Shown here in pieces: positions 3,247 to 47,772 of a stretch of DNA of 64,000 nt. The first letter of the stretch is position 1. The number at the start of each line of letters is the position of its first letter. Under the pieces are notes generated by a model. It was not told where the DNA came from. It saw only the letters and a program-made list of their open reading frames with translations, and did no database searches. Source of the stretch: an uncultured Spirochaetaceae bacterium (GTDB lineage: Bacteria > Spirochaetota > Spirochaetia > DSM-27196 > PWMO01); NCBI GenBank assembly GCA_964654185.1, contig CAZZIE010000001.1, positions 391 to 64,390 of the forward strand, in the 5' to 3' direction. The position numbers were made by a program, and so were the translations under genes.

Positions 3247-3310
3247 AGGTGTGAGATTTTCGTTACCACCGGACTGCTTCGCGAGACGAGCTACGTAGAA
3301 GGGGGAACCC

Positions 3311-4729: not shown

Positions 4730-4862
4730 GGCGATCGGCGCGCCGGTTGTCCGGGCCGGCCTCCACGAACGCAGCGGCGCCGCGTCCGCCTCGCGCCGAC
4801 GTCGCGCCGCTGCTGCGCCCTCTGTACACCCATGGCGCTTATCACTACCTTCGTCGAACGAC

Positions 4863-25206: not shown

Positions 25207-25415
25207 ACGCCATTTGTTCGACGAAACGGGCGAGTGCTCGACCAGACGGTCGAGCCCAGCAGAATAAACCTGACTATGAGATTCTGAAATAGCGGTATTT
25301 GGTTATAATTGCTTTTATCTCCATTATTATTAGGTAGGCCGGATAAGTTATTGTATTGTAAAGGCTTATGCGGCGCCCTCCTTCGTCTGCGGCGAAGATA
25401 CCTCGATTGGGAGCC

Positions 25416-25431
25416 TGGCACGATTGTTGCT
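25416..25431 (+). promoter_or_regulatory. sigma-54 (-24/-12) promoter
   Basis: TGGCAC-gattg-TTGCT is an exact match to the consensus TGGCAC-N5-TTGCW. It lies about 50 nt upstream of the pilin ATG and downstream of an AT-rich tract. Confidence 0.8.
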
Positions 25432-25479
25432 ACTTAAGGGGTAGAAACGGACGACGAGTCGTCCAGGAGGTAAGAGATT

Positions 25480-25977: not shown

Positions 25978-26111
25978 GTCGAAATTCACAGTGAGAGGGC
26001 TCTCACGCCAGGTGGTATAGACGCCCGGCAGGTGGTCTGAACATCTGCCGGGTGTTCTGAACATCCGGCAGTGAGGAACCTCCCGGTTGATCGTCGATAA
26101 GGAGCGCAGAG

Positions 26112-26852
26112 ATGAGACGGATACTGAGCCTGCTGATCATGGTCGTTGTCACCGTATCCGTTTCCGCCTTCGACTTCAGACCCATCTCCCGTGACTTCGA
26201 TCCGCAGGGTCCGGGCGCGCTCCAGACCTTCCGGGTCACAAACAACAGAGACAGCCGGATTGCCGTTCGCATATCCATGTTCGAACGAGAGATGGAGGCG
26301 GACGGCAGTGAGGAACGAACCCGGGTGGAAGACCGATTCGTGGTCTTCCCGTCGCGCCTCACTCTGGATCCGGGTCAGACCCAGGTGATCCGCGTTCAGT
26401 GGCGGGGAGGCTCCGTTGATACGGAAGAGGCCTACCGCATTGTCGCGGAGCAACTGCCGGTAGACTTCGAGGAGCGCGCAGCGGAGGGGGGAACCCTCAA
26501 CATCCTCTTTCGCTATGTCGGCTCCGTCTACGTAGTGCCACCCGATGCCGAGCCCAATGTCACCGTCGAGGAGGCGCGCGTCGTGGATGCCGGGGAGGCC
26601 GGCGCTACTCTTGAGCTGACCATGCACAACGCCGGAACGGCACACACCATTCTGAAAGACCTCGCCCTGACGGTCACCCAGACCCGGGAGAACAATGCCA
26701 CCCAACGGGCGGCCTTCGCTCCTGAAGAGCTGTCCCCCGTCGCAGGCTCCAATCTCCTTGCCGGGGCGCGTCGCAACCTGACGCTTCAGCTCCCGGGAGA
26801 GTGGCAAGAAGGGCCTGCTGAGGTCTCCCTGGATTTCGATGTCACCCGATAG
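26112..26852 (+). CDS. periplasmic fimbrial chaperone (PapD-like)
   Basis: 246 aa with a signal peptide. It has chaperone-like blocks (FRVTNNRDSRIAV, LDPGQTQVIRVQW, YRIVAEQLP) and a two-domain length. Confidence 0.7.
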   Translation: MRRILSLLIMVVVTVSVSAFDFRPISRDFDPQGPGALQTFRVTNNRDSRIAVRISMFEREMEADGSEERTRVEDRFVVFPSRLTLDPGQTQVIRVQWRGGSVDTEEAYRIVAEQLPVDFEERAAEGGTLNILFRYVGSVYVVPPDAEPNVTVEEARVVDAGEAGATLELTMHNAGTAHTILKDLALTVTQTRENNATQRAAFAPEELSPVAGSNLLAGARRNLTLQLPGEWQEGPAEVSLDFDVTR

Positions 26853-29463: not shown

Positions 29464-29475
29464 GGAGGTGACCAC

Positions 29476-30399
29476 ATGAACACAAAGCGATGGATTGTCC
29501 TTCCGTTTCTGCTCGCAATGACCGCTTTGTCCGCATGGGCTTTCGGTCAGGTGGAGATGCAAGACGTCTCCGGAACCATTACCGGAACCTACGACTACTC
29601 CAACGAGCTCGTCGTGACGGAGCCCTTCACCGTCTCCTACAGCGGCTCGAACGCCGTCGACTACTACATTGCCTTCTCAGCCGGCAGCTCCGGGGACGTG
29701 AACAACCGCACCCTCACGGATGGGTCCGGGAACACCCTGTCCTATCAGGTCATGGACTCTGCAACCTCCCGGAACGTCCTCCTGAACAACGCGAACGCGC
29801 AGACCACCGACGATGTGCTTGCCGGCAGCTTCTCCGGGGCGGGGCAAGAGGCGCAGAGCTTCGACATCGTCACCTTTGCCGGGCAATTCCCCCCGGCAGG
29901 ACAGTACACCGACACCCTTACGCTTACCTCCTACACCGGCTCGGTCGGGTCCGGCAGCCTCTCACGATTCGCCTTCACCACGGTGGATGTGACCGTCCCT
30001 TCGGTTGTGGAACTCTCCCTGGTCGATCCGGGAGCGCCCTTCAACCTGGCGCAGTCGGACTATCTTCTGGATTTCGGTGCCCTGTCGGCGGGAAACACGC
30101 GGCAGGTGGATCTGGTCGTCCGGTCCAATGAGACCTTCGGCGTCTCCATTGAGTCGGCGAACGCCGGCGTCATGGCCATACAACTTGCGGGAGACTCGAG
30201 CACCGTTCCCTACGTGCTCTCCGTGGATGGCTCCGCCGTCGACCTCTCCGGCGGCACGCCGGTGTCCGTGCTCTCCTCGGTGGGACCGACCGCCCTCACG
30301 GGAAGTCGCTATTCGATTTCGGTGCAGATTCAGAGCTTCGGCAACGTAACCGAGGGCGTCTACCAGGACGATCTGACGATTGTCGTGACGGCACAGTAG
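29476..30399 (+). CDS. two-domain SCPU-type fimbrial subunit (candidate tip adhesin)
   Basis: 307 aa with a signal peptide and two SCPU-like modules, each ending in the Y-x-D-x-L-T motif (GQYTDTLTLTSY and GVYQDDLTIVVTAQ). Confidence 0.6.
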   Translation: MNTKRWIVLPFLLAMTALSAWAFGQVEMQDVSGTITGTYDYSNELVVTEPFTVSYSGSNAVDYYIAFSAGSSGDVNNRTLTDGSGNTLSYQVMDSATSRNVLLNNANAQTTDDVLAGSFSGAGQEAQSFDIVTFAGQFPPAGQYTDTLTLTSYTGSVGSGSLSRFAFTTVDVTVPSVVELSLVDPGAPFNLAQSDYLLDFGALSAGNTRQVDLVVRSNETFGVSIESANAGVMAIQLAGDSSTVPYVLSVDGSAVDLSGGTPVSVLSSVGPTALTGSRYSISVQIQSFGNVTEGVYQDDLTIVVTAQ

Positions 30400-31037: not shown

Positions 31038-31814
31038 ATGCCCGTTACGCTTCCAGGCCAGGATTCGGCCGCACCCGCCGGGGCCGAGCGGTTCCCCGCC
31101 GACCGACGCGATCGCCCCTCTCCATCACGGCGGGGAAGCCGTCTGCCCGGGCTCATGCCCGCCCGGCGGCTGCGGCGTGCCGCACGCCCCCTCGCCCTGC
31201 TGTTTCCGGCCATCCCGGTTCTCACCGGCTGTGCCGCCGGCTTCGACGGCGCCCTCGGCGGCGCATTCGACGCCGCGCCCTTTGTCTATGAAGACCTGGC
31301 CGTCGTGCACGGGGCGGTTCCCGACTGTCACGAGCACCTTGGCCTCTACGTCTCCATCCGGAATACCTCGGCGAAGGCTTTCTCCGCCTTCTCGCACTCC
31401 TTCTATCTCTTCACCGAGGACGGGACGCCCCTCGGCACGGTTCAGACGCGCCGGGTTCGCGGTGAGGTGGAGGCATCCCTCCAACCCGGCGACGCCGAGG
31501 GCTACTGCACCTCCCTGGACTCGGTCTTTCACTTCCTTCCGGCTGAGACCACCGAAGTCCGGCAATACCGGATCGATGAAATTCGCTTCGACGACGGCGG
31601 CCGATGGCGCCCGGTCACCGCCTCCTACGCCTACCCCTACCCGGCGCGCGCGGAACAGGCCGGGGAGGCCGGGGCGGCGGCGCAGCACGCGGATGCCCCG
31701 CGGCCGGACCGGTCCGGCCGCGCAGATCCCCCGAGGCCGCGCCGGCTCGACCGAGCGGCACGCAGCTCAGCAGCCGCCCCGGCGGCCGCTCCCTTCCGGG
31801 AGGCCGCCCCATGA
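31038..31814 (+). CDS. hypothetical lipoprotein (first gene of the RHS operon)
   Basis: Strong AAGGAGG RBS 7 nt before ATG 31038. An Arg-rich n-region (ARRLRRAARP) is followed by LALLFPAIPVLTGC (lipobox). An alternative start is at 31155. The stop overlaps the next start (ATGA). Confidence 0.55.
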   Translation: MPVTLPGQDSAAPAGAERFPADRRDRPSPSRRGSRLPGLMPARRLRRAARPLALLFPAIPVLTGCAAGFDGALGGAFDAAPFVYEDLAVVHGAVPDCHEHLGLYVSIRNTSAKAFSAFSHSFYLFTEDGTPLGTVQTRRVRGEVEASLQPGDAEGYCTSLDSVFHFLPAETTEVRQYRIDEIRFDDGGRWRPVTASYAYPYPARAEQAGEAGAAAQHADAPRPDRSGRADPPRPRRLDRAARSSAAAPAAAPFREAAP

Positions 31815-34225
31815 GCCACCGGCCGCCGCGCAGCCCCGCGATCCCGGCGTCCATCGCCGTCGCCGCCGCTGTCTTTGCCGCCGTTCTCTCGGCCTGCGAC
31901 GCCCCCTTCGCGGCAAGGCTCCAGCCGACCGCGCCCGTCCGCCCACCTGTCACCGTCACCACTCGCGTCGAGCCGGCAAGCGCCGGGACCGTGACCGTAA
32001 CCGGTGCGGCCGCCCCCTACCGTCGCGGAGACCACCTGCAAGTCACCGCCCACCCGGCTGAGGGGTGGCGCCTCCTCGGCTGGACCACGGAGCTGGGTGC
32101 CGCCGGCGCGCAGAGCGCCGGTGCGGCGGATCCCGGCCCTCTGGGGGCCGCCCCCGCCGCGGCGAGCCCTGGCCCCGCCGCCGGGACCAGCCCCGGCCCT
32201 GCGGCCGCCCCCGCCGCGGCGAGCCCTGGCCCTGCGGCCAGCCCCAGTCCCGGCCCTGCTGCCGGCGAGCCCACCGCTGCGGCGGGCGCCGCCCCACGAA
32301 CCGCCGCGGGCAGCGCCGCGGCCGGCCCGGCCTCCCCGCCCGCTAACCCCCTCTCCCTGGTTCTGTCGGAGAGCGTCACCGTCATTGCGCGTTTCGGACC
32401 GGCTGCCTACGCCGTCACGACGGACGTCCTGGGGAACGGCACGGTTCAGGTCTCCGGTGACGGATGGCAGCCCGGGACGCCGGAGGGCAGCGCGGATCCC
32501 GACGGAACCGCCGCTCCCGGGGCTGAGATCACCTTCGAGGCGGTACCTGCCGCCGGAAACGGCTTCTCCCACTGGGAGGGGAGCGCCGCCGGCGCGGCCA
32601 ACCCCGCGACCCTGACGGTCGCCGAGCCCCTTGACCTCACCGCGGTCTTCTCGGCGGAACAGTTTGCCCTCTCGTACGAAGCGGTCGGGGAGGGGAGCAT
32701 TGCCGTCGAGGTTGTCGACGGCGCGGCCGGAGGTGATACCGAGGCCGGGAGCGCCGATCCGACCGAGGGTGTCGTCTATGGAAGCGAGGTCCGTCTCACT
32801 GCCGAACCCGCGCCGGGCTGGCGCTTCCTCCACTGGGGGGACGACCCGGCGGACGCCGCGAACCCGAAAACCCTGACCGTCACGGGCAGTCGGCACATCC
32901 GAGCCGTCTTCGCCGCCAACGAGTGGACCGTTCTCCTCTACATGAACGGCGACAACGAGCTCGAAGCCAATCTCCTGGAAGATGTCAACGAGCTCGAAGC
33001 GGTGGATCTCTCCGGAACCGGCGTCACCGTGGTGGCGCTGGTCGACCGCGCCGACGGGCACGCCACGAGCAACGGTGACTGGCGGGGCACCCGGCTCTAC
33101 CGCATTTCCTTCGATCCCGACGGCACCAATACCGCCCTGGTCTCTCATCGTCTCGCAAGCGCCCGGATGGGCCTGAGCGATACCGGCGACGACGAAGAGC
33201 TCAATCTGGGAAGCGCGGCAACGCTATCGGATTTCCTGGATTTCGCTGCGGCGGAGTTTCCGGCTGAGAACACCGCCCTCATCTTCTGGGGGCACGGCGG
33301 CGGCTACCGGGCTGCATCGGGAGCGCGTACAGCTGCCGGAAGATACGGTCACGGCCACACTGGCGCTGCGACATGGTCGATCCCGGGACCCCGCGGAAAG
33401 GCGCCACTCTCCACCGCAGGACACCGGGCGGTCACCGTCGACGACGGAAGCGGCGGGGACCACCTTCTCACGCCCGAGCTCGGGGGCGCCCTTGCCGGGC
33501 GCGATCTCGATGTCCTGGCCTTCGACCTCTGCTACGGGGCGCTCCTCGAAGTTGCGTATGAGGTGCGCACTTCTGCGGAGCTGTTCATTGCCTCCCAGGA
33601 CGTCGTCGGCGCCGACGGCTGGGAGTATGACCGCTTCCTCGATCGCTTCCTCCAGGGTCCGCGCGACCCGGCGGATTTCGCCGCCGCTGCAACGGACGTC
33701 TTCGAAGCGAGCCACGCCCAGGCGCACCGCGCCACGATCTCCGTCCTGGACCTGGCAGAGATCGATGGTGTCGCCTCCGCGCTGGACGACCTCTCGGTGG
33801 CACTGGTCGAGTGGATAGCTGCAGGCAGCGCCTCACAGCGCCGGGCAACGCTCCGCGACGGGATCTTCTCGCAGGTCGAGGATTTCTATGCGACCCCCGG
33901 AGACCTCAACATCGACCTGCGGGACCTCTCACGGTACGTCGCGTCGGATCTCGGCGCCGCTTCCGCGGAGGCGGCCGCCCTGGATGCGGCGGTGGCGCAG
34001 GCGGTGCTGTACTCCTGGGCCGGTCCGGGGAACCCCCGCGCAGGGGGACTGAGCGTACACTACGTTCCGCTCGACTCCCTGGGATATCCCGTCGTCCATG
34101 CGGACTCCTACTTCGCCGACCAGACCGCCACGCCACCGCTTTCCTTCGTTGGGGCCTCCGAGTGGGTGCCCAACCCGAGTACCGGGACGGGACTCCTCTA
34201 TCGGCTCTGGTACGAGGCGCTCTGA
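31811..34225 (+). CDS. lipoprotein with InlB-B-repeat-like modules and a C-terminal peptidase C11 (clostripain-fold) domain
   Basis: N-terminus AVFAAVLSAC (lipobox). Three repeats of the type V.V...G.G.V ... GW.F.GW are separated by Ala/Pro linkers. The C11-like core is EWTVLLYMNGDNELE, VVALVDRADGH, a His in FWGHGGG and a Cys in AFDLCYGA. GGGAGG RBS. The ORF-track start at 31604 is an overlap artefact. Confidence 0.75.
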   Translation: MSHRPPRSPAIPASIAVAAAVFAAVLSACDAPFAARLQPTAPVRPPVTVTTRVEPASAGTVTVTGAAAPYRRGDHLQVTAHPAEGWRLLGWTTELGAAGAQSAGAADPGPLGAAPAAASPGPAAGTSPGPAAAPAAASPGPAASPSPGPAAGEPTAAAGAAPRTAAGSAAAGPASPPANPLSLVLSESVTVIARFGPAAYAVTTDVLGNGTVQVSGDGWQPGTPEGSADPDGTAAPGAEITFEAVPAAGNGFSHWEGSAAGAANPATLTVAEPLDLTAVFSAEQFALSYEAVGEGSIAVEVVDGAAGGDTEAGSADPTEGVVYGSEVRLTAEPAPGWRFLHWGDDPADAANPKTLTVTGSRHIRAVFAANEWTVLLYMNGDNELEANLLEDVNELEAVDLSGTGVTVVALVDRADGHATSNGDWRGTRLYRISFDPDGTNTALVSHRLASARMGLSDTGDDEELNLGSAATLSDFLDFAAAEFPAENTALIFWGHGGGYRAASGARTAAGRYGHGHTGAATWSIPGPRGKAPLSTAGHRAVTVDDGSGGDHLLTPELGGALAGRDLDVLAFDLCYGALLEVAYEVRTSAELFIASQDVVGADGWEYDRFLDRFLQGPRDPADFAAAATDVFEASHAQAHRATISVLDLAEIDGVASALDDLSVALVEWIAAGSASQRRATLRDGIFSQVEDFYATPGDLNIDLRDLSRYVASDLGAASAEAAALDAAVAQAVLYSWAGPGNPRAGGLSVHYVPLDSLGYPVVHADSYFADQTATPPLSFVGASEWVPNPSTGTGLLYRLWYEAL

Positions 34226-37200
34226 TGGGCCGGCTAGGTCTGGTAACGGCGATCTGGGGCGTCGGGATGTGTGCGATTGTCGCCGTTGAGCGCGCGGATG
34301 CCTCCACCTGCACGAAGCCGGTGGTGTGCTGGGACGGCTCCTGCGTCTACTTCAGCGATCAGTGCCCGCCCGAGCCGCCTCCCGATGATGGCCCCTCGGA
34401 TGGGGATGGAGACGGCATCCCGGATGGTGCCGACAACTGCCCGGGCACGGCAAACGCCGGACAGGCCGACTCGGACGGAGATGGCACCGGTGACGCCTGC
34501 GACTCGACTCCTCATGGCGGATCCGGAGGCGGAGGATCCGGCGGAGGGGGCTCCGGTGGAGGAGCGGGTGGTAGTGACGAGTTCGACGGCGTCGTAAACA
34601 GCCGCGGGGAGATCGACGACGCCCTCGATCACGCCGACGGGAACCTGGACGAGAGCGACGACTACTTCGACATTCCGTCCTCTCTGGACACCGCCGTGCC
34701 GGGTGCCAAAGGTGATCTCGAGGACATAACCGATCCCGCCGACGGCTCCCTCTCCAAAGTTCAGAATGAGGCTGATGATCTCGACAGCGCCGTGACGGCC
34801 GGCGAGAAGGCCCTCGAGGAGTTCGACGATCCGGTGGGTTCAGCGGACAAGCTTTCCGAATCCCACGTTGAGATAACGAGTGTGGACGTCCCGGCTCTCG
34901 AGTCTGCGGCGGGAGAGCTCGCGCTGACGGCGGGCATCGGTGGGGGCGGCGCCGTGGCGAACCACGGAGCCGCGGCGGACTACATTGCGGCAGGCGTTCA
35001 CTATGAGAGCGTCTCCGGCGCTGCCGAGGAGGTCGCAGAGGCCGCCGCCGAATCACGCGAGATTCTGGCGACCATGACGGAGGGTGCGACCGCAGCCACC
35101 GACGCGCTCGTCGATACCGAACGCACCTACGCCGCCGAGCGAGGCGGCGATCCCGTCGCCCTTGCCACGGGCACCTTCTTCACGCAGGAGACCGATCTCG
35201 CCGTGGCAACTCCGGCGCAGGTGCTCCTCCGGTTGCCCGAGGAGCTGCCCGGCCTGGGGGTCCTCGCCGCGCGGACCCCCGGTGCGGACAACTCCCTCGC
35301 GGGTGCTGCGGCGGCCGCTGCGGGGGACGCTACGCTGATCTTCCGCCGATACTACAACAGCTCCGCAGGGTCCGGCCACGCCGGGGGTACGGTCGCCATC
35401 GACGGCGTCACCGGTGCTGCCGGCAGCACCGGAACTCTGGGGCCGGGGTGGCGTCACTCCTTTCAGAGTCGCCTCTTCATTGGATACGACGGTGTCACCG
35501 CCGCCGAGGTGCGGGAGCTCCAGGAGCGCTCCTCCCGGGCGGCGACCCGGGTCCGGGAGGCACGAGACACCCTGGAGGATGCGCGGCGGAGTGCCGCATC
35601 CGCCGTCGAGGGGTACCGGGACTCCCTGGAGCTTGCCGAGGCGCTCGCGGTGGGGTGGCGGGACCTGAGAGATGCAGCTCTCGCCGCCGCCGAGGAAGGG
35701 GCGGAACTGCGGCGCGCCGCCGGGGAAGCGGATGAGCAGGTTGCGCCGTCGCACGCCGCGTCTGCGGAGGAGCTGGTGGCGCGAGCAGACGAGATCGAAG
35801 CGAGCCTTGCGGAGCTGGATGACCGTTTCAGCGGGCTCATCCGGCGCGCCGACAGAGCCGAGCGGAACGCCGAGAGTGCGCGCAGCTCCTACCAGGCGGT
35901 CATCGACTTTGTCGATGGGCTTCTCGTTGAGTGGAACTCCGACCAGGACGCCCGCGCCTCCGCGACCGCCGGAGTGACGACCGCCCTGGATCAGCGCGAC
36001 CGCGCGGCGGAGCATGAGGAGTCGCTGCGGAATCGAGTGAGCTCCATCGCGGACGCCCTGGCGAAGGTAGAGGACCTCGGCACCGACGAGCTTGACCGCG
36101 TCTCGGCCCTGCGCGACCGAACTGAGCACGTCCTCTCGGTAACGGGCGTCTTCCCGGATGATCCCGCCGCCTACGCGCCGTATGTGCGAGCGCAGGCGGG
36201 ATACCGCGAAGCCGTCGAGTTGCGAGACGGCCTCCTGCCGACCGGACTTGCCGCGGCGGAGCAGCGGCTCCGGGCAATCGAGACGGAGGGGCCCGTCATC
36301 ATCGGCACAATGGAGGAGAGCCGGGAGGTCACCGAGGCCGTCGCGGAGGACGCAGGAAACCGCAGCGACTACGCGGTCTCGGCGGCGCGTCGCAACGGTG
36401 CGCTCCCGTCCGGGGCGGACCCCGGCGCAACAGGGATGGGCACCTTCACCGTGATCGGCGCCGACGGTGCGCCCAGGCTCTTCCGGACCGGTGCGGAGCC
36501 CGCCTTTGCCGGGCCGACGAGTATCGGTGACGGCCTCGTCCACTACTACCGGCGCGACGTCACGGCGCACCCCGACGCACCCGGCGATTACGGACGCCTC
36601 ATCGTCCGGCGCGACGGGAGCTACATCCTGGAGGAGCGCAACGGCACCGAGCATCGGTACGATGCCTACGGGCGGCTGACAGGCGTTACCGCCCGGGGCG
36701 GTGCAGCGGTGACCCTGGAGTACGAGGGCCTCGGCGAAGGGGGACGTTTGCGCCGCGTCGTCGACGACGCCGGAAGGACGCTTGCCCTGCAGTACGACCG
36801 CGACCGTCTCGTCGAGGTCGCCGGGCCCGACGGCGCCGCGGTTCGCTACGGGTACGACGGCCAGGGGCGGCTTCACTCCGTAACTGATCCGAGTGGCCGC
36901 ACTCGGCACTATCGCTACCGGGGGCACCTTCTCACCTTCATCGGGACACCGCGACACGTAGCGGCCAGCGCCGAAGCGCCGTCGGGCGGTGGCGCCGCCG
37001 CGCCGGATCATGCCGACGGACCGGGCCGGCGCTACAACTACGAGCGGCGCGACGGGCGCGACGTCGTGACATGGACGGAGGATGAGGCGGGCCACCGTGA
37101 GCTCTTCAGCTACCATCCCGGTGAGAGCCCTTACGGCGCGGGCTACACCAAGCACACGGGCTACCACGACTGGACGGAAGCCGGCGCCGCCGTGACCACG

Positions 37201-40200
37201 AGGACCCACTATGACACCAACCTGCGGACCGTCCGTCGGGAGTGGCTGAACTCCGACGGCGTCGTTGCCGCCTGGGAGTCCTTTGTGCACGACGCGGCTG
37301 GCAACGTCGTTCGGCGCGAAGCGGGTGGCGACGGCGTCCGCCGCGTATGGCGCTTCGCCTACGACGGTGACGGCAATCTCGTGGCCCGGATCGATCCGGA
37401 CGGCGTCGAAGAGAGCTGGGAGTACGATGCCGACGGCAATGTGACCGCCCACACCAATGGCGCAGGCGAAACTACGCGATTGACCTGCGACGCTTCAGGG
37501 AGGCTCACCGGCGCGCACTACCCGACCGGCGCCGCCTTTCGGTACCGCTACGACACCGAGGGAAATCTCACGGAGATTCGGCGTCTCCTGAACGGGCGGT
37601 GGCACGCGACGCGGCTCGTCTATGGTCGCCATGGGTACCCGACCTCCGTGGAGTACCCGGATGGAGCCACGGCCGCACTTCGCCACGACGCGTATGGACG
37701 TCCGGCCGCCCATATCTCGCGCCTCGGACTGGCAACGGAGGACCGTCGGGGGCCGGCGGGGCGACTTCTGGAGCGCTCATACGCAGACGGGAGCGCCGAA
37801 GTCTTTCGGTACGACGCCGCCGGAAACCTGACGGAGACGAAGGATCGCCTCGGCCACGTCACGCGTTACGAGCACGACCCGCGTGGACTCGTCACCAGTG
37901 TGTTTCGGGAACGCATTGTCGATGTGGAGACCGGGGCGAATACCGTGGACGCAAGGACCTACCGATACCGTGCGGACGGCCGCCTGGCCGAACGGCGGGC
38001 GGGCCGCCGGGAAGGGGGCGAGTCGGCGCAGTGGCGGTACGACTACGACTATCGGGGCCGTCTCATCCGGGAGGAGGAAACCACCACGGGAACCCTCACG
38101 CGCTACGCCTACGACGCAGCGGGGAATCTGGTCGAACGCGCAACCGAGCCGACCGGTGTCGCGCCCGCCGGCGCGGGGACGGGTGCGGCGGCGGGTGCGG
38201 GGGCGGGCGCGGCGGGTGTCCCGGCCACGGCCCGGACCTTCGTCACGAAGTACGGCTATTCACCGGCCGGCCGCCTGGAGTGGACCGAAAACGGTGCAGG
38301 CGAGCGGACCCGCTTCGACCGCGACGGAGCCGGGGAGGTGACCGCCGCAATTGATCCGGCAGGACACCGGACACGGATTCGCCGGGACACTGCCGGGCGC
38401 ACCATCCTCACGACCGCGGTGCCCGGGGCGCCGCCGGAGGTGCGGCGCTTCGACGAGGCGGGGCATCTCATCGAGCTCAGCGACCCCGACGGCAGCACCT
38501 GGCGCTACGAGTACGACCCCGCCGGGCGCATCCGCCGCGAGAGCGCCCCGGACGGCGGCGAGACCACCTACACCTACCGCCATCTCACCCCCGGCATGGA
38601 GGTCACTCGCACCGACCCTCTGGGCAACGACTGGGTCCTGCGATTCGACGCCGCCGGTCGCCGCATCGGGGCAGTCGACCCGACCGGCGCCGAGACCAGC
38701 TTCGAGCGGGACGCAGCCGGCAGAATCACTACAGTGATCGATGCTCACGGCAACCGCCGCAGCTACGTCTACGACGCTGTCGGCAACGTCCTTGCCCGGA
38801 TGGATGCGTACGGTAACGGCCGCACCTTCACCTACGACGCGCTGGGCCACCCCGCCTCCGTCACGCTCCCGACTGGTGAGACGACGCGCTTCGGCTACGA
38901 CGCACTGGGCCGGCGCCGCTGGATCGAAGAACCCCTCGGCAACCGCACGCACTTCACCTACGACGTGGCGGGAAACCTCCTGGCCACGGAAACCCCGATG
39001 GGTCTGACCCGGCGCTTCACCTACGACGCTGCCGGACGCGCCGTTGCGCGGATCGAGCCGGACGGTGCGACCTACCGGTACGAGTATGACGCGCGGGGGC
39101 GCACCACGGGTGAGATCGATCCGACCGGAAGCGTTCGTCGGTACGAGTACGAGGAGAACGCCCGCGGCAACCTCATCGCGGAGGTCAACCGCCTGGGCGC
39201 GCGAAGGACCATCTCCTACGGTGCCGCCGGACGCATCGACTCAATGACTGACTTCAACGGCGTTCTCCATGACTTCGACTACGATCCCGCAGGACGGTTG
39301 ATCCGAGAGGTGGCCGAGGGGGAGGTGGTCCGCGCCTTCGAGTACGACGTGCGGGGAGATCTGGTGCGCGCGGCCAGCCCGGCCGCCGCGCTGGAGTTCG
39401 ACTACGACGAGCGGGGGCTTCTGGTCGAGAGCCGGGACCGGGACGCGGAGGTCGCCGTCGCCTACGAGTACGATGCCGCAGGGCGCCGCACCCGCGTCCT
39501 CACCGAGGGCTACGAGATCGCAACCTCCTACGGCGCCATGGGGGAGGTGCGGGAGGTCGCCTTCGACGACGGGTCGGCCTTCGGCGCAGGGGAGGGGCGG
39601 ATCCGCCTGGAGTACGACGAAAGCCTCCGCGAGCGCGTGCGCCGTTTTGCCGGGAGCCTGGTCGCCGAGCGCCACTATGATGAGGCGGGGCGCCTCGCCG
39701 GAGTGGTTCATCGAGGGGGCGGTGGCGTCGCCGGTGAGGTCCTGGACGCGGAGGCCTACGTCTACGATCGGGACGGGCGGCGCATCTACACGGTGGACGA
39801 GGCTGGTGGCCTCACCGCGTACCGGTACGACACCGCGGGTCGTCTGGCTGCGGCGCTCTATCCTCACGAGGATGGTGTGGTGGCGTCTCACCTTCGACAG
39901 CTCAAGGCAGTCGGCATGGTGTCGCCGCCGGCGCAGGCGGACCGGCTTGGTACCATTGGCGCGGCCACCGGTTCGCGCGGCGGCTCGCGCGGCAGCTCCG
40001 TCGCGGTTGCGGGACGGATCACCATTCCCTCTGAAGAGAGGGATCTCATCCGGGAGGTTACGGAGCAGGTCCTCCCTCGGCGCAAGGGCGGCACGTTCCT
40101 CTCTCGGGAGATGTGGGGCGAGAGCTTCACGTACGACGAGCGGGGCAACCTCACCGGGGTGGCCACACCGCTCGGGACGATCGGGTTTGCCTACGACGCT

Positions 40201-41664
40201 GCGGACCGGCAGGTTCGCGCCGGAGCCCTCTCCGTCGCGTACGATGCAGCCGGAAACGTCACGCGTCGCGCCGTTGGAGCGGCCGCTCTGGAGTACGACT
40301 ACGACGCCCGCCACCGGATGACCCGCATCCACGGGCGCACCCCGGAGGGCCGCGATATCGATCTGCGCTACGGCTACGACGCCCTGGACCGCCGGTCGTA
40401 TCGCCTCGATGTGCCTTCCGGTGACCGTACGGAGTCCGCGACGGCGGGGACGGGCGGACCGGCCGCGACGGCGGCGCCCGGGACGGCAACGCTGGAGAGA
40501 GCGGTCTACCAGGGCTTCTCCTTCATGCGTCTGGCTACGCTGGAGGCGCATGGAGTCGGCAGCGTGCAGGGTGATTTTTCCGGCGTGGATGCGCCGAGCC
40601 TTCCCGGCCGGCTCCCGCGACCGAAGCCGCGGCGCGGCGCCGGTCCGCGATCCCGCGTCGACGCAGGGCAGGGCGCCGCAGTGTTGACCCGACTGGAGAT
40701 GGCGGCGGTGGCCGTTTCCGTGCAGCAGGTTCCCGCCGCTGTGGTATCGCCCCGGCAGGTCAGCCACTTCGGGGTGGATGTGCTCGGGAGCGTAACCCTT
40801 CGCGTGACGGCGCACGCGAGTGCCGCAGGCAACCGTGCGGCCGGGTCGACCGGTGCAATCGTGGAGGATCTGGCGTACCGCGCCTTCGGGGCGGTACGGG
40901 CCGGTGACGTTCGCGGTGCCATACCCTTCGGCTACACCGGCAAGGTCGTGGACGTCGCAACGGCGGTCTACGATTACGGCCTGCGAGACTACGCGCCCAG
41001 TACCGGCCGATTCACCACGGTGGACCCTCTACGGGCCGGCACGAACTGGTACGCCTACGTTCACAACGATCCGATCAATCTCATCGACAGGTTCGGCCTG
41101 GAGGCCTCCGTCCCCGGCAACCCGGGTCCCGGCGGCTTTCCCCTCGATCCTTCGGTCCAGGTCTTTCGCAGCGACGGTAACATCGACCAGCTGGCATTCG
41201 ACCAACGCTACGGCTTCGGCACCATCGCCGGCACACAATCCTGTCAGTCCGTCGCGGTCTGCAATCTCTACGCCCAGGAAACCCCCGGCGGCATGACGGT
41301 CGAGCAACTCGACGTCGTGGTTTCGGTCAGCCTCTCCTCCGGCCACCTGGAAGAGGAAGGCGGCTCCGTCACCGACTTTTCCGGCCTGAGCCGAACCATT
41401 GCAACGGAGCTCGATCGCGACGACTATTATGAATACGTGTACCCGGCACCGGACTACGAGCGCCTAACAATGTCTGAACACGACTTCGAACAATCCGACG
41501 CGGCCGCGGGGGTGGTGCAACTCTACAACCCTCAATATGACGTGAATCACTTTGTGACCCGGAGTCGCGATCGCACATACGATCCTCTACCCTCGTCTCG
41601 ACCGACAGCTTCGGGGTATGTCGTAGAAGAGGTTCGTCCACTTCAACTTCTGGATCTTCACTAG
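34225..41664 (+). CDS. RHS/YD-repeat polymorphic toxin with signal peptide, TSP3-like repeats, coiled-coil insertion and an unassigned C-terminal domain
   Basis: ATG at 34225 overlaps the upstream stop (TGATG). The hydrophobic N-terminus ends in ADAS. DGDGDGIPDGADNCPG...DSDGDGTGDACD is a thrombospondin-type-3-like Ca-binding repeat. GDPVALATGTFF is a plug motif. Dozens of YD repeats follow (YxYDxxGRL type). The RHS core end is DPLRAGTNWYAYVHNDPINLIDRFGL, followed by about 187 aa of lower-GC sequence. Confidence 0.9.
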   Translation: MGRLGLVTAIWGVGMCAIVAVERADASTCTKPVVCWDGSCVYFSDQCPPEPPPDDGPSDGDGDGIPDGADNCPGTANAGQADSDGDGTGDACDSTPHGGSGGGGSGGGGSGGGAGGSDEFDGVVNSRGEIDDALDHADGNLDESDDYFDIPSSLDTAVPGAKGDLEDITDPADGSLSKVQNEADDLDSAVTAGEKALEEFDDPVGSADKLSESHVEITSVDVPALESAAGELALTAGIGGGGAVANHGAAADYIAAGVHYESVSGAAEEVAEAAAESREILATMTEGATAATDALVDTERTYAAERGGDPVALATGTFFTQETDLAVATPAQVLLRLPEELPGLGVLAARTPGADNSLAGAAAAAAGDATLIFRRYYNSSAGSGHAGGTVAIDGVTGAAGSTGTLGPGWRHSFQSRLFIGYDGVTAAEVRELQERSSRAATRVREARDTLEDARRSAASAVEGYRDSLELAEALAVGWRDLRDAALAAAEEGAELRRAAGEADEQVAPSHAASAEELVARADEIEASLAELDDRFSGLIRRADRAERNAESARSSYQAVIDFVDGLLVEWNSDQDARASATAGVTTALDQRDRAAEHEESLRNRVSSIADALAKVEDLGTDELDRVSALRDRTEHVLSVTGVFPDDPAAYAPYVRAQAGYREAVELRDGLLPTGLAAAEQRLRAIETEGPVIIGTMEESREVTEAVAEDAGNRSDYAVSAARRNGALPSGADPGATGMGTFTVIGADGAPRLFRTGAEPAFAGPTSIGDGLVHYYRRDVTAHPDAPGDYGRLIVRRDGSYILEERNGTEHRYDAYGRLTGVTARGGAAVTLEYEGLGEGGRLRRVVDDAGRTLALQYDRDRLVEVAGPDGAAVRYGYDGQGRLHSVTDPSGRTRHYRYRGHLLTFIGTPRHVAASAEAPSGGGAAAPDHADGPGRRYNYERRDGRDVVTWTEDEAGHRELFSYHPGESPYGAGYTKHTGYHDWTEAGAAVTTRTHYDTNLRTVRREWLNSDGVVAAWESFVHDAAGNVVRREAGGDGVRRVWRFAYDGDGNLVARIDPDGVEESWEYDADGNVTAHTNGAGETTRLTCDASGRLTGAHYPTGAAFRYRYDTEGNLTEIRRLLNGRWHATRLVYGRHGYPTSVEYPDGATAALRHDAYGRPAAHISRLGLATEDRRGPAGRLLERSYADGSAEVFRYDAAGNLTETKDRLGHVTRYEHDPRGLVTSVFRERIVDVETGANTVDARTYRYRADGRLAERRAGRREGGESAQWRYDYDYRGRLIREEETTTGTLTRYAYDAAGNLVERATEPTGVAPAGAGTGAAAGAGAGAAGVPATARTFVTKYGYSPAGRLEWTENGAGERTRFDRDGAGEVTAAIDPAGHRTRIRRDTAGRTILTTAVPGAPPEVRRFDEAGHLIELSDPDGSTWRYEYDPAGRIRRESAPDGGETTYTYRHLTPGMEVTRTDPLGNDWVLRFDAAGRRIGAVDPTGAETSFERDAAGRITTVIDAHGNRRSYVYDAVGNVLARMDAYGNGRTFTYDALGHPASVTLPTGETTRFGYDALGRRRWIEEPLGNRTHFTYDVAGNLLATETPMGLTRRFTYDAAGRAVARIEPDGATYRYEYDARGRTTGEIDPTGSVRRYEYEENARGNLIAEVNRLGARRTISYGAAGRIDSMTDFNGVLHDFDYDPAGRLIREVAEGEVVRAFEYDVRGDLVRAASPAAALEFDYDERGLLVESRDRDAEVAVAYEYDAAGRRTRVLTEGYEIATSYGAMGEVREVAFDDGSAFGAGEGRIRLEYDESLRERVRRFAGSLVAERHYDEAGRLAGVVHRGGGGVAGEVLDAEAYVYDRDGRRIYTVDEAGGLTAYRYDTAGRLAAALYPHEDGVVASHLRQLKAVGMVSPPAQADRLGTIGAATGSRGGSRGSSVAVAGRITIPSEERDLIREVTEQVLPRRKGGTFLSREMWGESFTYDERGNLTGVATPLGTIGFAYDAADRQVRAGALSVAYDAAGNVTRRAVGAAALEYDYDARHRMTRIHGRTPEGRDIDLRYGYDALDRRSYRLDVPSGDRTESATAGTGGPAATAAPGTATLERAVYQGFSFMRLATLEAHGVGSVQGDFSGVDAPSLPGRLPRPKPRRGAGPRSRVDAGQGAAVLTRLEMAAVAVSVQQVPAAVVSPRQVSHFGVDVLGSVTLRVTAHASAAGNRAAGSTGAIVEDLAYRAFGAVRAGDVRGAIPFGYTGKVVDVATAVYDYGLRDYAPSTGRFTTVDPLRAGTNWYAYVHNDPINLIDRFGLEASVPGNPGPGGFPLDPSVQVFRSDGNIDQLAFDQRYGFGTIAGTQSCQSVAVCNLYAQETPGGMTVEQLDVVVSVSLSSGHLEEEGGSVTDFSGLSRTIATELDRDDYYEYVYPAPDYERLTMSEHDFEQSDAAAGVVQLYNPQYDVNHFVTRSRDRTYDPLPSSRPTASGYVVEEVRPLQLLDLH

Positions 41665-41700
41665 GCATAGCTGTCAACGCGATGGCGGGAGTAAACAGTC

Positions 41701-42603
41701 ATGGATCTGGTAATGCGAATCGTGCTGTTGGGTCTCTTTGCTTCAGTTGTCACGGCAGCAACTGGAGCGAAGGAACTCCATCTTGTGCCTGTCGACGGCG
41801 GGCGCCTCATCATGGGATCTGAGGAGGGAGATGACAACCCACTACACGAAGTTGTTCTTTCAAGCTTCATGATGGCAGAGCGAGAGATCACGGTCGGTGA
41901 GTTTCGAGAGTTCACCGTCGCCGAGGAGATACCGTTTCGATGGACGTCGTATAACTTCACGCAGTACGTGGGCCGACCCGCAGGATATGTGATCCCCGAC
42001 GATCGCGCCATGTATTTCGTTATGTGGTATGAAGCGGTTTGGTATGCGAATTATCGGAGCGAGTTGGAAGGGCTTGAGAAGGCCTACGGGTTCGACGAAC
42101 AAGCTTTGCGCGACTATTTGTACGACTTTCGCGAGGGTCGCGACCCTCCCAGCATAGAGTGGGACCGCAGTGCAAACGGGTACCGTTTGCCAACAGAGGC
42201 AGAATGGGAGTTTGCTGCGACCGACCGAGGGCAAGCTCGTACTGTCACTGATGAGTTGCTCCTACGCAGGTCGTGGGTTCGTGAGAACGCCGACGGTAAG
42301 GTGCATCCTGTGAAGGCGAAGGTACCGACCGAACTGGGGTTGTACGACATGTTGGGTAACGTATCGGAATGGTGCTGGGACTACTACGACTCCAGGTACT
42401 ATGACCGGTCGCCGGTTCGCGACCCCACCGGTCCAGCAACGGGGGAGGAATTGTCGGTCTTTCCTGGGCGCAAAGACATTCGGGTATTCCGCGGTTGTTC
42501 TTGGCGAACTCCGCTCAATTTCTGCGGACCTCACGAAAGAATGGCAACTATTGCACCGAATCGAGGCACCATCGGCATCCGCCTTGTTCGGAATGCGGAA
42601 TGA
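41701..42603 (+). CDS. secreted FGE-sulfatase (SUMF1/C-type-lectin-like) fold protein, in the immunity-gene position
   Basis: 300 aa with an N-terminal signal/TM segment (IVLLGLFASVVTAATGA). FGE-sulfatase family blocks are present (GYRLPTEAEWEFAA, GLYDMLGNVSEWCWDYY, VFRGCSW, GIRLVRN). GC is about 50-55%, clearly below the flanks. Confidence 0.8.
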   Translation: MDLVMRIVLLGLFASVVTAATGAKELHLVPVDGGRLIMGSEEGDDNPLHEVVLSSFMMAEREITVGEFREFTVAEEIPFRWTSYNFTQYVGRPAGYVIPDDRAMYFVMWYEAVWYANYRSELEGLEKAYGFDEQALRDYLYDFREGRDPPSIEWDRSANGYRLPTEAEWEFAATDRGQARTVTDELLLRRSWVRENADGKVHPVKAKVPTELGLYDMLGNVSEWCWDYYDSRYYDRSPVRDPTGPATGEELSVFPGRKDIRVFRGCSWRTPLNFCGPHERMATIAPNRGTIGIRLVRNAE

Positions 42604-44770: not shown

Positions 44771-46492
44771 ATGCGAAATCGGCGAATCGAGAAGGCCCCG
44801 GTCGGTATTGAGGGCTTCGACTTCATAACCGGTGGCGGGCTGCCCAGGGGACGCTTGACCCTCGTTACGGGCCCCGCCGGCAGCGGTAAGACGATATTCG
44901 GAGTTCAGTTTCTCGTTCACGGAGTTCGGGATCACGGCGAGCCCGGCGCTTACGTCGGGTTCGAGGAAACCGAAGAGGAGTTGCTCGACAACTTCGGCAG
45001 CTTCGGCTACGGCCTGGAAGAGCTGACCGGTGCGAACAAACTCCTCCTGGATCACATTGAAGCCTTTCCACTCAACACCTCGGAGGCGGGGGACTACGAT
45101 CTGGACGGGCTCTTCGTACGTCTGGATGAGACCTTGAAGAGCGTCGGGGCCAAACGGCTTGTTCTGGATGCATTTCCCGCACTCTTCGCCGGCTTCACGA
45201 ACACTCAGGCGGTGCGCTCGGGACTCATGCGCCTGTTCAGCTTTCTGAAGAGCCGGGGTGTCACCGCAATCGCAACGGCGGAGAGCGCCACCCAGGTCGC
45301 GCGGTACGGACTCGGGCGGTCCCTTTCGGACTGCGTCATCAACTTTGACACGACCCTTCACGGTCGAATTGCCACCAGGCACCTTCGCGTTGCCAAGTAC
45401 CGCGGTTCAATGCATCACGACGATGAGTTTCCCTTCCTGATCTCCAACAACGGCGTCAGGGTGATGCCGGTGACCTCAGTGCACCAGGATTATCCGGTTT
45501 CCCGGGAAAGGATCACCACCGGAATCCCGAGCCTGGACGCAATGCTCGGCGGTGGTGGCTTCTACCGGGGCAGCAGCATTCTCGTGTCCGGTGAGGCCGG
45601 GACAGGCAAGACGAGTATTGCCGCCCATTTCGCACGGTCCGCCTGCTTGCGTAACGAGCGCAGCCTCTACTGCGCCTTCGAAGAGGCCGCGGACGAGGTT
45701 GTTCGCAACATGTCGTCGATAGGTCTGAACTTTCCGGAATGGATTGATCAGGGGCTGCTGAAAGTCTTCGTCTCCCGGGCAACCCGCCACGACCTGGAGG
45801 TTCACCTCGCCAACCTGGAGGAAGCCGTCGTTGAGTTCCGCCCGACGGTCATGGTGATCGACCCGGTATCGAATCTCCTGCGGGCGGGTTCTTTCGGAGA
45901 CGTGGCGTCAATGATTTCGCGGCTGGTTGATTTCCTGAAGTCGCACGGTGTTACCGCCATGTTCACCGTCCTGAGCAAGTGGGGCGGTGGCGAGTACCAG
46001 GAATCCATTGATATCTCCTCGGTCATGGATGCCTGGATTCAGCTGCGAAATCAGGAGGCGAGTGGTGAGCACACCCGGCTTCTGTCGATTGCGAAGGCGC
46101 GGGGAATGCCCCACTCCAATCAGGTTCGGGAGTTCATGATTACGGAGAATGAAATTCAACTGGTCGATGTATACGCCGCCGGAGGCGAAGTTCTGACCGG
46201 CTCGGCGCGGGTTGCCCGACTGGAAGCGGACCGCCGGGACGCGATCCGGCGGCGCCTGGAAGTGGAACGGGCCGAGCGGGAGCTGGCGAGCCGCAGAACG
46301 GCCATTGAGAAGCAGATAGCTGAACTGAAAGGGGAGCTCGAACAGATCGAGGAGGACTACAGGTACAGCCGCCTCTGGCATCAACAGGAGGCGGCATCCC
46401 ACGAGAGTGAGCGGAACCTGGTTGCACGGGAGCGCTGGGCGGAGGGAGCGATGGAGGGGGCGAGTGGCAAAGACGACGGGAAGTCGGAGTGA
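44771..46492 (+). CDS. kaiC: KaiC-family double RecA-like ATPase with a C-terminal coiled-coil extension
   Basis: Two KaiC domains: Walker A GPAGSGKT plus catalytic FEETEEE, and Walker A GEAGTGKT plus FEEAADE. DISSVMD aligns with the cyanobacterial phospho-site segment (ISTITD). The last ~90 aa are heptad-like and charged (RLEADRRDAIRRRLEVERAERELASRRTAIEKQIAELKGELEQIEE). Confidence 0.85.
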   Translation: MRNRRIEKAPVGIEGFDFITGGGLPRGRLTLVTGPAGSGKTIFGVQFLVHGVRDHGEPGAYVGFEETEEELLDNFGSFGYGLEELTGANKLLLDHIEAFPLNTSEAGDYDLDGLFVRLDETLKSVGAKRLVLDAFPALFAGFTNTQAVRSGLMRLFSFLKSRGVTAIATAESATQVARYGLGRSLSDCVINFDTTLHGRIATRHLRVAKYRGSMHHDDEFPFLISNNGVRVMPVTSVHQDYPVSRERITTGIPSLDAMLGGGGFYRGSSILVSGEAGTGKTSIAAHFARSACLRNERSLYCAFEEAADEVVRNMSSIGLNFPEWIDQGLLKVFVSRATRHDLEVHLANLEEAVVEFRPTVMVIDPVSNLLRAGSFGDVASMISRLVDFLKSHGVTAMFTVLSKWGGGEYQESIDISSVMDAWIQLRNQEASGEHTRLLSIAKARGMPHSNQVREFMITENEIQLVDVYAAGGEVLTGSARVARLEADRRDAIRRRLEVERAERELASRRTAIEKQIAELKGELEQIEEDYRYSRLWHQQEAASHESERNLVARERWAEGAMEGASGKDDGKSE

Positions 46493-46778
46493 GCCCTGGC
46501 GGTTCGAGCTGTACGTTGCGGGTACCTCGCCGAAGCAGCAGCTCGCACTCCGAAATCTCACGGACATCTGTGATGCCGCACTCGGTACGGACTACACCAT
46601 CGACGTCATTGATATTCTCGAGCATCCCGGATTGAGCAGGGAACGGCAGATCCTCGCGACACCGACGGTGATCCGGATCACTCCATTGCCGGAGCGACGG
46701 ATTGTCGGAGATCTCACCCAGCGTGATGCGGTGTACCGCGGTCTGGAGCTGCCCCGGCTGCAGGAGGATCGCGTCTAG
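46464..46778 (+). CDS. kaiB: KaiB-like thioredoxin-fold protein
   Basis: About 104 aa from GTG 46464 (GGAGG 6 nt upstream), overlapping the kaiC 3' end. It has the KaiB signature ELYVAG.SP.S..A..NL..IC ... IDVIDILEHP....E.QILATPT. Confidence 0.8.
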   Translation: MAKTTGSRSEPWRFELYVAGTSPKQQLALRNLTDICDAALGTDYTIDVIDILEHPGLSRERQILATPTVIRITPLPERRIVGDLTQRDAVYRGLELPRLQEDRV

Positions 46779-46791
46779 TAAAGCGGATTAC

Positions 46792-47772
46792 ATGAGTATC
46801 ACCCTGAGAAGCGCTCTCGAACAAGCAGAACCCAATCTCAACCGAGTCTTGTACCAACTTGCCGACGGCATTCTCCTGGTGGATAAAGAGGGGATTGTCG
46901 TCTATGCCAATCCGGCGGCGGAGAGCCTCTTCGGCTATGAGAGTGGCAAGATGGAAGGGTGCATGCTTGGCTATCCGGTGATCGCAGGGATGGCCGAGGT
47001 AGAGATTCCTCAGGACGATGGTAACATTGCGGTGGCGGAGTTTCGCTCAGTGGAAATCACCTGGCGCGATCGTCCGGCGTACCTCGCGAGTTTTCGCGAC
47101 ATTACTCAGCGAAAGAACGCGGAGAAGCGGGTTGCTGCCCTGAGCAAGGCGCTGGTAAGCGCGTATGAGCGGGCGCAGCGGGAAATCGGCCATGAGCTCC
47201 ACGACGGCGTCGGACAGATGCTGCTGGGCGTCCGTCTCTCCCTGGACAGCGCCCGCCGGGCCGGAGCGGACGAGATGCCGCAGCGCCTGGAGAAGCTCGG
47301 CACCATGGTGGATGAGATCGTTGCGGAGCTCAGACGCATGTCCCATGAGCTCAAGCCGGCGGTTCTGGACGACTTCAGCTTTCTGGAGGCCCTCCACAGC
47401 CACCTGGAGCGCCTCCGCGACGAGACCGGCCTGGAGGTCGAGTTCACCCACCGCGGCCTTTCGGGGCGCAACACCGACATGGTGGAAACCGTCGCTTTCC
47501 GCATCATTCAGGAGGCGCTGACGAATGTCATCCGCCACGCGGACGTCGCCCGTGCGACCCTCCTGGTGGAGGAGGTGGATGATGTCCTGCGTCTCCGCAT
47601 TGCCGACAGCGGCAAGGGGTTCGAGGTAGCCGACCACTCGGACGCTTCCATCGGCTTGCGCGGCATGGCCGAGCGGGCGGAGCTGATCGGGGGTACCTTC
47701 GAAGTCGCATCCGCCACGGGCCGCGGTACCGCCATCACCGCCGTGCTCCCTCTCACTGATTCGGCACGGTAA
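46792..47772 (+). CDS. PAS-domain sensor histidine kinase (HisKA_3/NarL-partner type)
   Basis: 326 aa from ATG 46792. PAS-like N-terminus (GILLVDKEGIVVYANPAAESLFGY), an H-box HELHDGVGQ, and an HATPase_c domain (ADSGKGF ... GLRGMAERAELIGG). Confidence 0.85.
   Translation: MSITLRSALEQAEPNLNRVLYQLADGILLVDKEGIVVYANPAAESLFGYESGKMEGCMLGYPVIAGMAEVEIPQDDGNIAVAEFRSVEITWRDRPAYLASFRDITQRKNAEKRVAALSKALVSAYERAQREIGHELHDGVGQMLLGVRLSLDSARRAGADEMPQRLEKLGTMVDEIVAELRRMSHELKPAVLDDFSFLEALHSHLERLRDETGLEVEFTHRGLSGRNTDMVETVAFRIIQEALTNVIRHADVARATLLVEEVDDVLRLRIADSGKGFEVADHSDASIGLRGMAERAELIGGTFEVASATGRGTAITAVLPLTDSAR

Follow-up and report, generated by a model that had tools for sequence, protein, structure and literature searches.

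The analyzed DNA was a stretch of 64,000 nucleotides (referred to below, in its entirety, as the window) from an uncultured Spirochaetaceae bacterium (assembly GCA_964654185.1, contig CAZZIE010000001.1), in which an RHS/YD-repeat polymorphic toxin gene is followed on the same strand by a gene encoding an FGE-sulfatase-fold protein. The subject is the 187-aa C-terminal tail of the RHS protein, a probable toxic tip, and its pairing with the product of the downstream gene. The features of the locus are as follows:

34225..41664, plus strand: RHS/YD-repeat polymorphic toxin gene, 2479 aa
41065..41100, plus strand: core-terminating motif NDPINLIDRFGL, read from the translation, directly before the tail
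41101..41145, plus strand: EASVPGNPGPGGFPL, a Pro/Gly-rich linker that joins the RHS core to the toxin domain; family homology begins at about residue 16–20 of the tail
41146..41661, plus strand: putative toxin domain, 172 aa modelled, delimited from relatives, family alignment A1 and an AlphaFold2 model
41687..41691, plus strand: GGGAG, a putative Shine–Dalgarno-like site read from the sequence, 9 nt before the start codon of the partner gene
41701..42603, plus strand: putative cognate immunity gene encoding a 300-aa FGE-sulfatase-fold protein (PF03781, 1e-35)
41401..42600, no strand assigned: island of low G+C content at third codon positions (GC3), measured by segment, which begins midway through the toxin domain and takes in the immunity gene

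The open reading frame (ORF) of the RHS gene and its translation matched protein P0001 (2479 aa) at 100%, and in the Pfam search of this protein RHS_repeat (PF05593, 4.6e-108) was found together with DUF6531, TEN_YD-shell and TSP_3 repeats. The N-terminus, judged by eye, is signal-peptide-like, and the ATG start codon at 34225 shares the sequence TGATG (34223–34227) with the stop codon of the upstream gene. Motif NDPINLIDRFGL is a variant of PxxxxDPxGL in which DRFGL replaces DPxGL, its counterparts being DPLGL in the orthologue P0003 and DRLGL in P0002, and it is presumed, by analogy with established RHS biology, to be the site of autoproteolytic release. The tail directly after it occupies 41101–41661 (stop codon 41662–41664) and is numbered here from Glu1 at 41101. 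An earlier sequence-only reading of this DNA, the first-pass annotation, had placed the tail in the exchangeable toxin position of an RHS protein; its coordinates and 187-aa sequence were reproduced by translation of 41101–41664, and the position itself was borne out, the tail being preceded by the RHS repeats and by the motif that ends the core. The elements by which RHS polymorphic toxins are recognized in sequence, namely, a repeat shell upstream, a core-ending motif and a conserved gene directly downstream, were all found. The minus-strand ORFs 41029–41346 and 41369–41677 were rejected as high-GC artefacts, because homologues validate the plus-strand frame. When the surroundings of the junction were scanned for promoters and terminators, no signal exceeded chance, and exact-protein look-ups of the RHS and FGE proteins of the window returned no record.

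The tail alone had no match in Pfam, NCBIfam or PHROGs (E ≤ 0.1–1), none of the 30 aligned relatives matched Pfam (E ≤ 1) or NCBIfam (E ≤ 0.01), and searches of the Protein Data Bank (PDB) with the tail sequence and with the family profile gave no convincing chain match. The tail is thus without a named family in these searches, as the first-pass annotation had described it, and the profile-level and fold searches of the tail that it had proposed, once run, gave no confident match to a named toxin family. A word-indexed search of 5.8 billion proteins returned no homologue with the single tail sequence and only three proteins, all on short contigs, with the family profile. An exhaustive phmmer search of 1.84 billion cluster representatives gave 36 proteins at E < 1e-3, which included the protein itself (P0001), the RHS orthologues P0002 (76% tail identity) and P0003 (53%) and a remainder that was 27–49% identical. 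No member of the toxin-domain family was found in scans of the genome collection (GTDB) or, by tblastn with the toxin, on plasmids; a single locus, L001, was recovered in the metagenome scans. The source names of the members are those of Spirochaetota and Treponema genomes, metagenome-assembled. Judging by these searches, the toxin-domain family is very small or rare. Across the relatives, the domain is always C-terminal and is borne by varied carriers, namely, RHS/YD proteins (in which it follows a DPxGL-type motif), proteins with a double-glycine leader (...ELLEVNGG), some of which are encoded beside C39-ABC exporters, and others, including a 610-aa protein; the relative P0030 carries LysM.

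Conservation was counted in the 31-sequence family alignment A1, and the positions of the most conserved functional candidates in the window are as follows:

41188..41190, plus strand: Gln30 (CAG), located 18 residues N-terminal to Cys48 and at least 90% conserved; candidate oxyanion-hole or structural residue
41242..41244, plus strand: Cys48 (TGT), invariant; stands at the N-terminal end of helix 33–45 of the model and is the predicted nucleophile
41263..41265, plus strand: Asn55 (AAT), part of an N-x-Y motif in the helix of the Cys; at least 90% conserved
41548..41550, plus strand: His150 (CAC), invariant, in beta-strand 133–140 of the model; predicted general base
41581..41583, plus strand: Asp161 (GAT), in a D-S/P-L motif that closely follows the next strand; at least 90% conserved and the predicted third member of the triad

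Several Gly, Ser, Ala and Tyr positions were also at least 90% conserved, only one Cys was invariant, and Cys48 and His150 were separated by 102 residues. Cys48, His150 and Asp161 are predicted, from their conservation and their positions in the models, to form a catalytic triad with Gln30 and Asn55 nearby. The order Gln-x-Cys, His, Asp, which had been pointed out earlier as a mere pattern, was therefore retained only in part: the invariance of Cys48 and His150 and the conservation of Asp161 agree with it, but the Gln of Gln-x-Cys is not conserved, this position being occupied by Q, V, A, E, K or S across the members.

The AlphaFold2 model of the 172-aa construct, built with A1, had a pLDDT of 96.2 and a pTM of 0.91; in it, the Cys opens helix 33–45, the His lies in strand 133–140 and the Asp comes after the short strand beyond it. 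A second AlphaFold2 model, of a Treponema member that was 29% identical, had the same topology (pLDDT 94.8). Foldseek comparison with the PDB gave nothing significant for either model, the leading labelled matches being papain-like cysteine peptidases. For the first model, the best match was the C39 toxin StbD-CT (8ssm, E = 0.017) and the second the C39 domain of PCAT1 (TM = 0.42), followed by further weak matches to the putative cysteine protease 3isr, Tae4 (4jur), LapG and PLpro. For the second model, the Josephin-type deubiquitinase 9fn4 was found (E = 2.3e-3, probability 0.99), along with staphopains, StbD-CT, PLpro, USPs and PeiW. In the viral library (BFVD), an unnamed 141-aa protein came first (E = 7e-4, TM = 0.53/0.62), and a phage "Peptidase C39 domain" protein came next. 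The models would thus give good support to a papain-like fold class and to no particular family within it. The earlier suggestion of a papain-like or transglutaminase-like thiol enzyme fits the residue conservation, the positions of the Cys and His in the two models and the papain-like fold neighbours.

Membership in C39 was examined separately. The C39 profiles PF03412 and PF13529 matched none of the 31 members, and when the family was compared by hhalign with two genuine C39 domains, those of exporters adjoining family members, the probability was 0.2%, with only the His motif aligned; C39 membership was ruled out at the sequence level by these results. The oxyanion Gln of C39 domains lies about 6 residues before the Cys, as is also seen in two PCAT domains (QQDETDC and QHDEFDC). 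This spacing was not found in the family, where the conserved Gln is 18 residues upstream of Cys48 and the Gln at −2 is unconserved. The NlpC_P60, CHAP and Tae profiles of Pfam likewise matched neither the tail nor its relatives. The domain is filed here, on the basis of the models, as a putative new papain-fold family, not as C39.

The gene downstream of the toxin domain begins 36 nt past the RHS stop codon, and its first approximately 24 codons (41701–41772) are signal-peptide-like, as judged by eye. An FGE-sulfatase (PF03781) gene was found directly 3' of the toxin domain in all eight independent loci; the ninth, L003, stands outside this count, as the lipoprotein-like downstream ORF in it extends over no more than 55 codons. 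No other candidate immunity gene was conserved beside the toxin in the fetched loci. The expectation that the downstream gene would be a partner of the tail was thus confirmed as to its conservation. The loci, with their carriers and partners, are as follows:

L004/L005: RHS carrier P0003; FGE partner
L001: 610-aa carrier; partner with FGE and SH3_3
L002: carrier P0027; partial FGE partner (E = 6.6e-6)
L006–L008: P0023, double-glycine leader, Treponema sp.; FGE partner, beside a divergent C39-ABC exporter and an HlyD-like gene
L009/L010: P0050, double-glycine leader; partner with FGE and SH3_3, then an HlyD-like gene, a 471-aa protein and a C39-ABC exporter
L011: RHS fragment; FGE partner, then a second RHS tip with Peptidase_M23
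L012: RHS fragment; partner with FGE and SH3_3

All seven full partners that were aligned begin with a signal peptide or a lipobox, and all share the EWCWD fold core, whose structural Cys is invariant. At the positions that we take to be those of the human FGE cysteines, no conserved Cys pair, as expected of FGE catalysis, was found among the seven. A bacterial SH3_3 domain was present on four partners (L001, L009 and L012 by Pfam, L007 by alignment). The identities of toxin and partner to those of the window fall in parallel (53% and 50% in L004, approximately 36–44% and 45% in L011). The best PDB relative of the partners was TvpA (2y3c), with E = 2.6e-42 for the partner profile (A6) and 9.6e-26 for the window protein, whereas true FGE was matched far worse by the partner profile (approximately 1e-22). 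No template/variable repeat pair was found in the window, none of whose repeats involves the FGE gene, and no reverse-transcriptase domain was found among the listed genes of the fetched loci. The downstream FGE-fold protein is most likely, by analogy with known immunity proteins of this fold, an antidote that would bind the toxin and not act as an enzyme.

Several of the related loci show arrangements of their own. In L011, a second RHS C-terminal fragment ending in Peptidase_M23 and then a 186-aa ORF (2987–5738) lie directly after the toxin/FGE pair, and the locus looks like an array of cell-wall-directed RHS tips. The exporter cluster of L006–L010 also includes an unannotated protein of 471–503 aa; in these loci, a papain-fold toxin would be matured by the papain-fold (C39) domain of an exporter. 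Among plasmid matches to FGE, an orphan FGE-like gene was found in Treponema saccharophilum plasmid pTS1 (L013, 357943–368755), in an island with an annotated Imm1 gene; the island further holds a leucine-rich-repeat protein, a short M23 metallopeptidase and two SH3-domain proteins and has the look of an immunity/toxin cassette island. In Haliscomenobacter hydrossis plasmid pHALHY01 (L015), a 2048-aa protein of the SUMF1/EgtB/PvdO family is encoded between CHAT/MoxR and caspase/NACHT genes, so that the FGE domain is embedded in a different, CHAT/caspase kind of conflict system. A Tse3-Tsi3 locus of a type VI secretion system (T6SS) was sought among these plasmid matches, and only the pTS1 island and the unrelated Haliscomenobacter system were found.

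The drop in GC content that had been noticed in the tail is genuine and begins at about 41400. GC3 was 0.76–0.82 up to 41400, 0.66 for 41401–41550 and 0.41 for 41551–41661; it averaged 0.61 over the FGE gene and 0.68–0.78 in the genes further downstream, and the low-GC stretch is the longest run of 300-nt windows with less than 56% GC in the 64 kb. The first-pass annotation had taken the drop as fitting a horizontally swapped toxin tip, an explanation which did not hold. Locus L004, syntenic with the window (usher, C11 peptidase, RHS, FGE, DUF72, KaiC, histidine kinase), has the same tip and partner, and the tip is more conserved than the RHS protein overall (53% for the tail and 40% overall against P0003; 76% and 69% against P0002); therefore, there was no recent exchange. 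The tip must accordingly have been in place before these lineages diverged, and it is more strongly constrained than the shell. A recently acquired cassette would find some agreement in the low-GC3 island itself (41401–42600), in the presence of the domain on unrelated carriers and in the AT-rich character of most other family loci (28–45% GC); however, the GC break lies within the domain rather than at the RHS/toxin junction (41100/41101) and extends through the partner to about 42600, and L004 shows a similar, milder gradient (GC3 of 0.89 and 0.73 for the halves of the tail and 0.63 for FGE), so that, together with the synteny and the conservation of the tip, a recent swap has little probability. 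The favoured explanation of the low GC3 is an ancient acquisition of the toxin's 3' half and the immunity gene from a lineage of lower GC, still incompletely ameliorated, and the island may partly reflect properties of the immunity gene itself. The occurrence of the same domain on RHS, double-glycine-leader and other carriers indicates that the module does move, though only over long times.

Taken as a module of toxin and immunity protein, the varied carriers, the conservation and the strict pairing would by far find their most economical reading. In this reading, which is considered moderately probable, the tail is a toxic tip, a new papain-fold thiol hydrolase that acts in the periplasm or on the cell wall and is neutralized by the FGE-fold immunity protein. 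The carrier would be a Sec-signal-bearing RHS protein of a high-GC Spirochaetota-type genome, from whose shell the tip would be freed by self-cleavage after DRFGL. The released tip would attack a target of the rival cell outside the cytoplasm, namely, peptidoglycan, on which it would act as amidase or endopeptidase, or else a protein of the envelope, and the producer would be shielded by the product of the next gene, a secreted or lipid-anchored protein of the FGE-sulfatase/C-type-lectin fold that binds the toxin. The site of action is placed outside the cytoplasm because the partners are exported, four of them carry SH3_3, P0030 carries LysM and the neighbouring tip in L011 is an M23 peptidase. 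As to the substrate, peptidoglycan is tentatively put first and protein, with somewhat less assurance, second, the rest being left to reactions of another type, for example, deamidation or transglutamination. The cross-bridges of spirochaete peptidoglycan are Orn-Gly, and cleavage by C39-type enzymes takes place beside Gly; a bearing of this on the substrate would be speculative. We infer the toxicity, catalysis, compartment and substrate of the tail, as well as the binding type of immunity, from the evidence given above.

Several points weigh against this interpretation. The predicted triad is drawn from conservation and secondary-structure positions, not from side-chain geometry, and in the alignment with genuine C39 domains nothing beyond the His motif was matched. 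The periplasmic site would be deduced solely from the export signals of the partners and the accessory domains, and a Sec-exported RHS protein in a window without T6SS genes would still need a route to the periplasm of the rival; such genes (VgrG, PAAR, DUF4123) were found neither in the scanned ORFs of the window nor among the listed genes of the fetched loci. Moreover, the C39-type toxins StbD-CT and Cpe1 act in the cytoplasm (bioRxiv 10.64898/2026.05.07.723447; PMC12136450), and auto-processing of StbD-CT in vitro requires reducing conditions (bioRxiv 10.64898/2026.05.07.723447). The tail could accordingly be supposed to be a cytoplasm-acting C39-type protease toxin of the StbD-CT/Cpe1 kind, with an FGE protein that is not immunity at the site of action. 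The rank of StbD-CT and the PCAT1 C39 domain as best and second matches of the first model, the recurrence of StbD-CT for the second model and the documented presence of C39 toxins in contact-dependent inhibition (CDI) and T6SS systems agree with this, but it is judged unlikely in view of the missing sequence and profile similarity, the conserved Gln located 18 rather than about 6 residues before the Cys, the export of all partners (whereas StbD-CT and Cpe1 act in the cytoplasm) and the lack of any other conserved candidate immunity gene beside the toxin.

A different role for the partner is quite unlikely, whether as an enzyme that modifies the toxin, perhaps at its catalytic Cys, or the envelope of the producer, or as half of a non-toxic pair concerned with surface remodelling or adhesion. 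It is true that the fold is enzymatic in FGE, EgtB and PvdO and that gene pairing by itself is no proof of inhibition; nevertheless, the FGE catalytic cysteines are unconserved in the seven partners, where only the Cys of EWCWD is invariant, Tsi3 acts by binding, an RHS tip and a double-glycine leader by an exporter are architectures of polymorphic toxins and bacteriocins, and the orphan FGE-like gene of pTS1 shares its island with an annotated Imm1 gene. It is highly unlikely that the domain is non-catalytic, that is, a binding or pore-forming module in which the conserved Cys and His are structural: the invariant residues lie exactly at papain-fold catalytic positions in two models, the sequence is without hydrophobic or amphipathic segments typical of pore formers, and a single invariant Cys excludes a conserved disulfide, although the absence of a significant match to any enzyme would be expected of such a module.

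Upstream of the RHS gene lies the following neighbour, whose stop codon overlaps the RHS start in the TGATG mentioned above:

31604..34225, plus strand: clostripain-like Peptidase_C11 gene with InlB-type B-repeats

The overlap of a C11 gene with the RHS gene that follows it is kept in the syntenic L004 (C11 at 3532–5004), and the C11 peptidase may serve to process or release the RHS protein. Within the Ala/Pro-rich region of the C11 gene, a 57-nt tandem duplication (89% identical) was found at 32146–32259. A chaperone-usher pilus cluster (PapD_N, Usher, SCPU/spore-coat-U) lies at 26112–30399, just upstream of the C11-RHS pair, and its usher end is also kept in L004 (1–2448). On the other side of the locus, at 44771–47772, a KaiC homologue (3e-100), in which two KaiC/ATPase domains are present, precedes a PAS/HisKA_3 histidine kinase; KaiC, KaiB and a kinase are found at the matching place in L004, and such clock-like signalling genes are unusual beside a toxin locus. 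The lowest GC content of the window (0.47 in 300 nt) was recorded at approximately 25050–25600, in and just upstream of the minus-strand ORF 25366–26064.

Papain-like toxin domains of polymorphic toxin systems have been described as Tox-PL1/2/3 and Tox-PL-C39 (Zhang et al. 2012, PMC3482391), and StbD-CT (PDB 8ssm) and Cpe1 cut a Gly-Gly motif of GyrB and ParE (bioRxiv 10.64898/2026.05.07.723447; PMC12136450). The domain studied here resembles Tox-PL, StbD-CT and Cpe1 in being an exchangeable C-terminal toxin domain on RHS, CDI or T6SS carriers and in the order of Cys, His and Asp, with the Cys at the N-terminus of a helix; fold neighbourhood with them is weak. It differs from C39 toxins in its Cys-to-His spacing (102 residues, as opposed to approximately 75–80 in C39), in the absence of sequence or profile similarity and in its partner, which is a secreted FGE-fold protein, whereas theirs is a small immunity protein beside a cytoplasm-acting toxin. 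Given these differences from StbD-CT and Cpe1, GyrB and ParE are improbable as targets. With respect to the periplasm-acting peptidoglycan amidase effectors of the papain/NlpC-P60 fold (Tse1, Tae1-4, with periplasmic Tai immunity proteins), the likeness consists in a small Cys-His(-Asp) hydrolase, here a predicted one, and an exported immunity protein, here a putative one, in the presence of Tae4 (4jur) among the weak fold matches and in the peptidoglycan-binding modules LysM and SH3_3 in the family loci. Unlike Tae, NlpC/P60 and CHAP enzymes, however, the domain has no Pfam match, and the fold of the immunity protein is different.

The FGE-fold protein Tsi3 of Acinetobacter baumannii blocks the T6SS effector Tse3 by binding it, without the FGE catalytic cysteines (bioRxiv 10.1101/2021.05.21.445229); T6SS pairs of Tse3 and Tsi3 and their FGE-like immunity family were described by Lopez et al. 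(2021, J Bacteriol 203:e0028121), and Tse3 itself is a 1001-aa protein without a recognised domain (PMC6833914). The module described here shares with Tse3-Tsi3 an FGE-sulfatase-fold immunity candidate that lacks a conserved catalytic Cys pair and is encoded beside the toxin. It differs in that no T6SS genes lie nearby, that the partner gene follows the toxin gene immediately, in the same orientation, and is single rather than one of an array of about four, and that no protein of approximately 1000 aa occurs among the 36 relatives. TvpA, a hypervariable, retroelement-diversified lipoprotein of Treponema denticola with an FGE/C-type-lectin fold (2y3c), has in common with the partners the FGE-type fold and the Treponema or spirochaete origin; the difference is that the window has no template/variable repeat pair, and TvpA is not known as an immunity protein. 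That diversified TvpA-like proteins serve as adaptable "universal antidotes" or decoys against these envelope-attacking toxins in spirochaetes is a highly improbable idea, which, if true, would give a physiological role to the target of a diversity-generating retroelement.

Thus, a toxin family that was blank in the databases has been defined, with a testable catalytic hypothesis (Cys48, His150, Asp161), and FGE-fold immunity proteins, previously tied to T6SS and to Tse3, whose function as an effector is not known, gain a putative partner toxin of recognisable catalytic fold. The pairing would extend FGE-fold immunity to Sec-signal RHS proteins and to toxins with a double-glycine leader exported by C39-ABC exporters in Treponema, and this conserved pairing outside T6SS is the main added value of the analysis. 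It may also help to explain how enzymes are inhibited by FGE-fold scaffolds. If the toxin cuts peptidoglycan or an envelope protein, it would represent a new enzyme class in the interbacterial warfare of spirochaetes, a phylum in which antagonism has been little studied.

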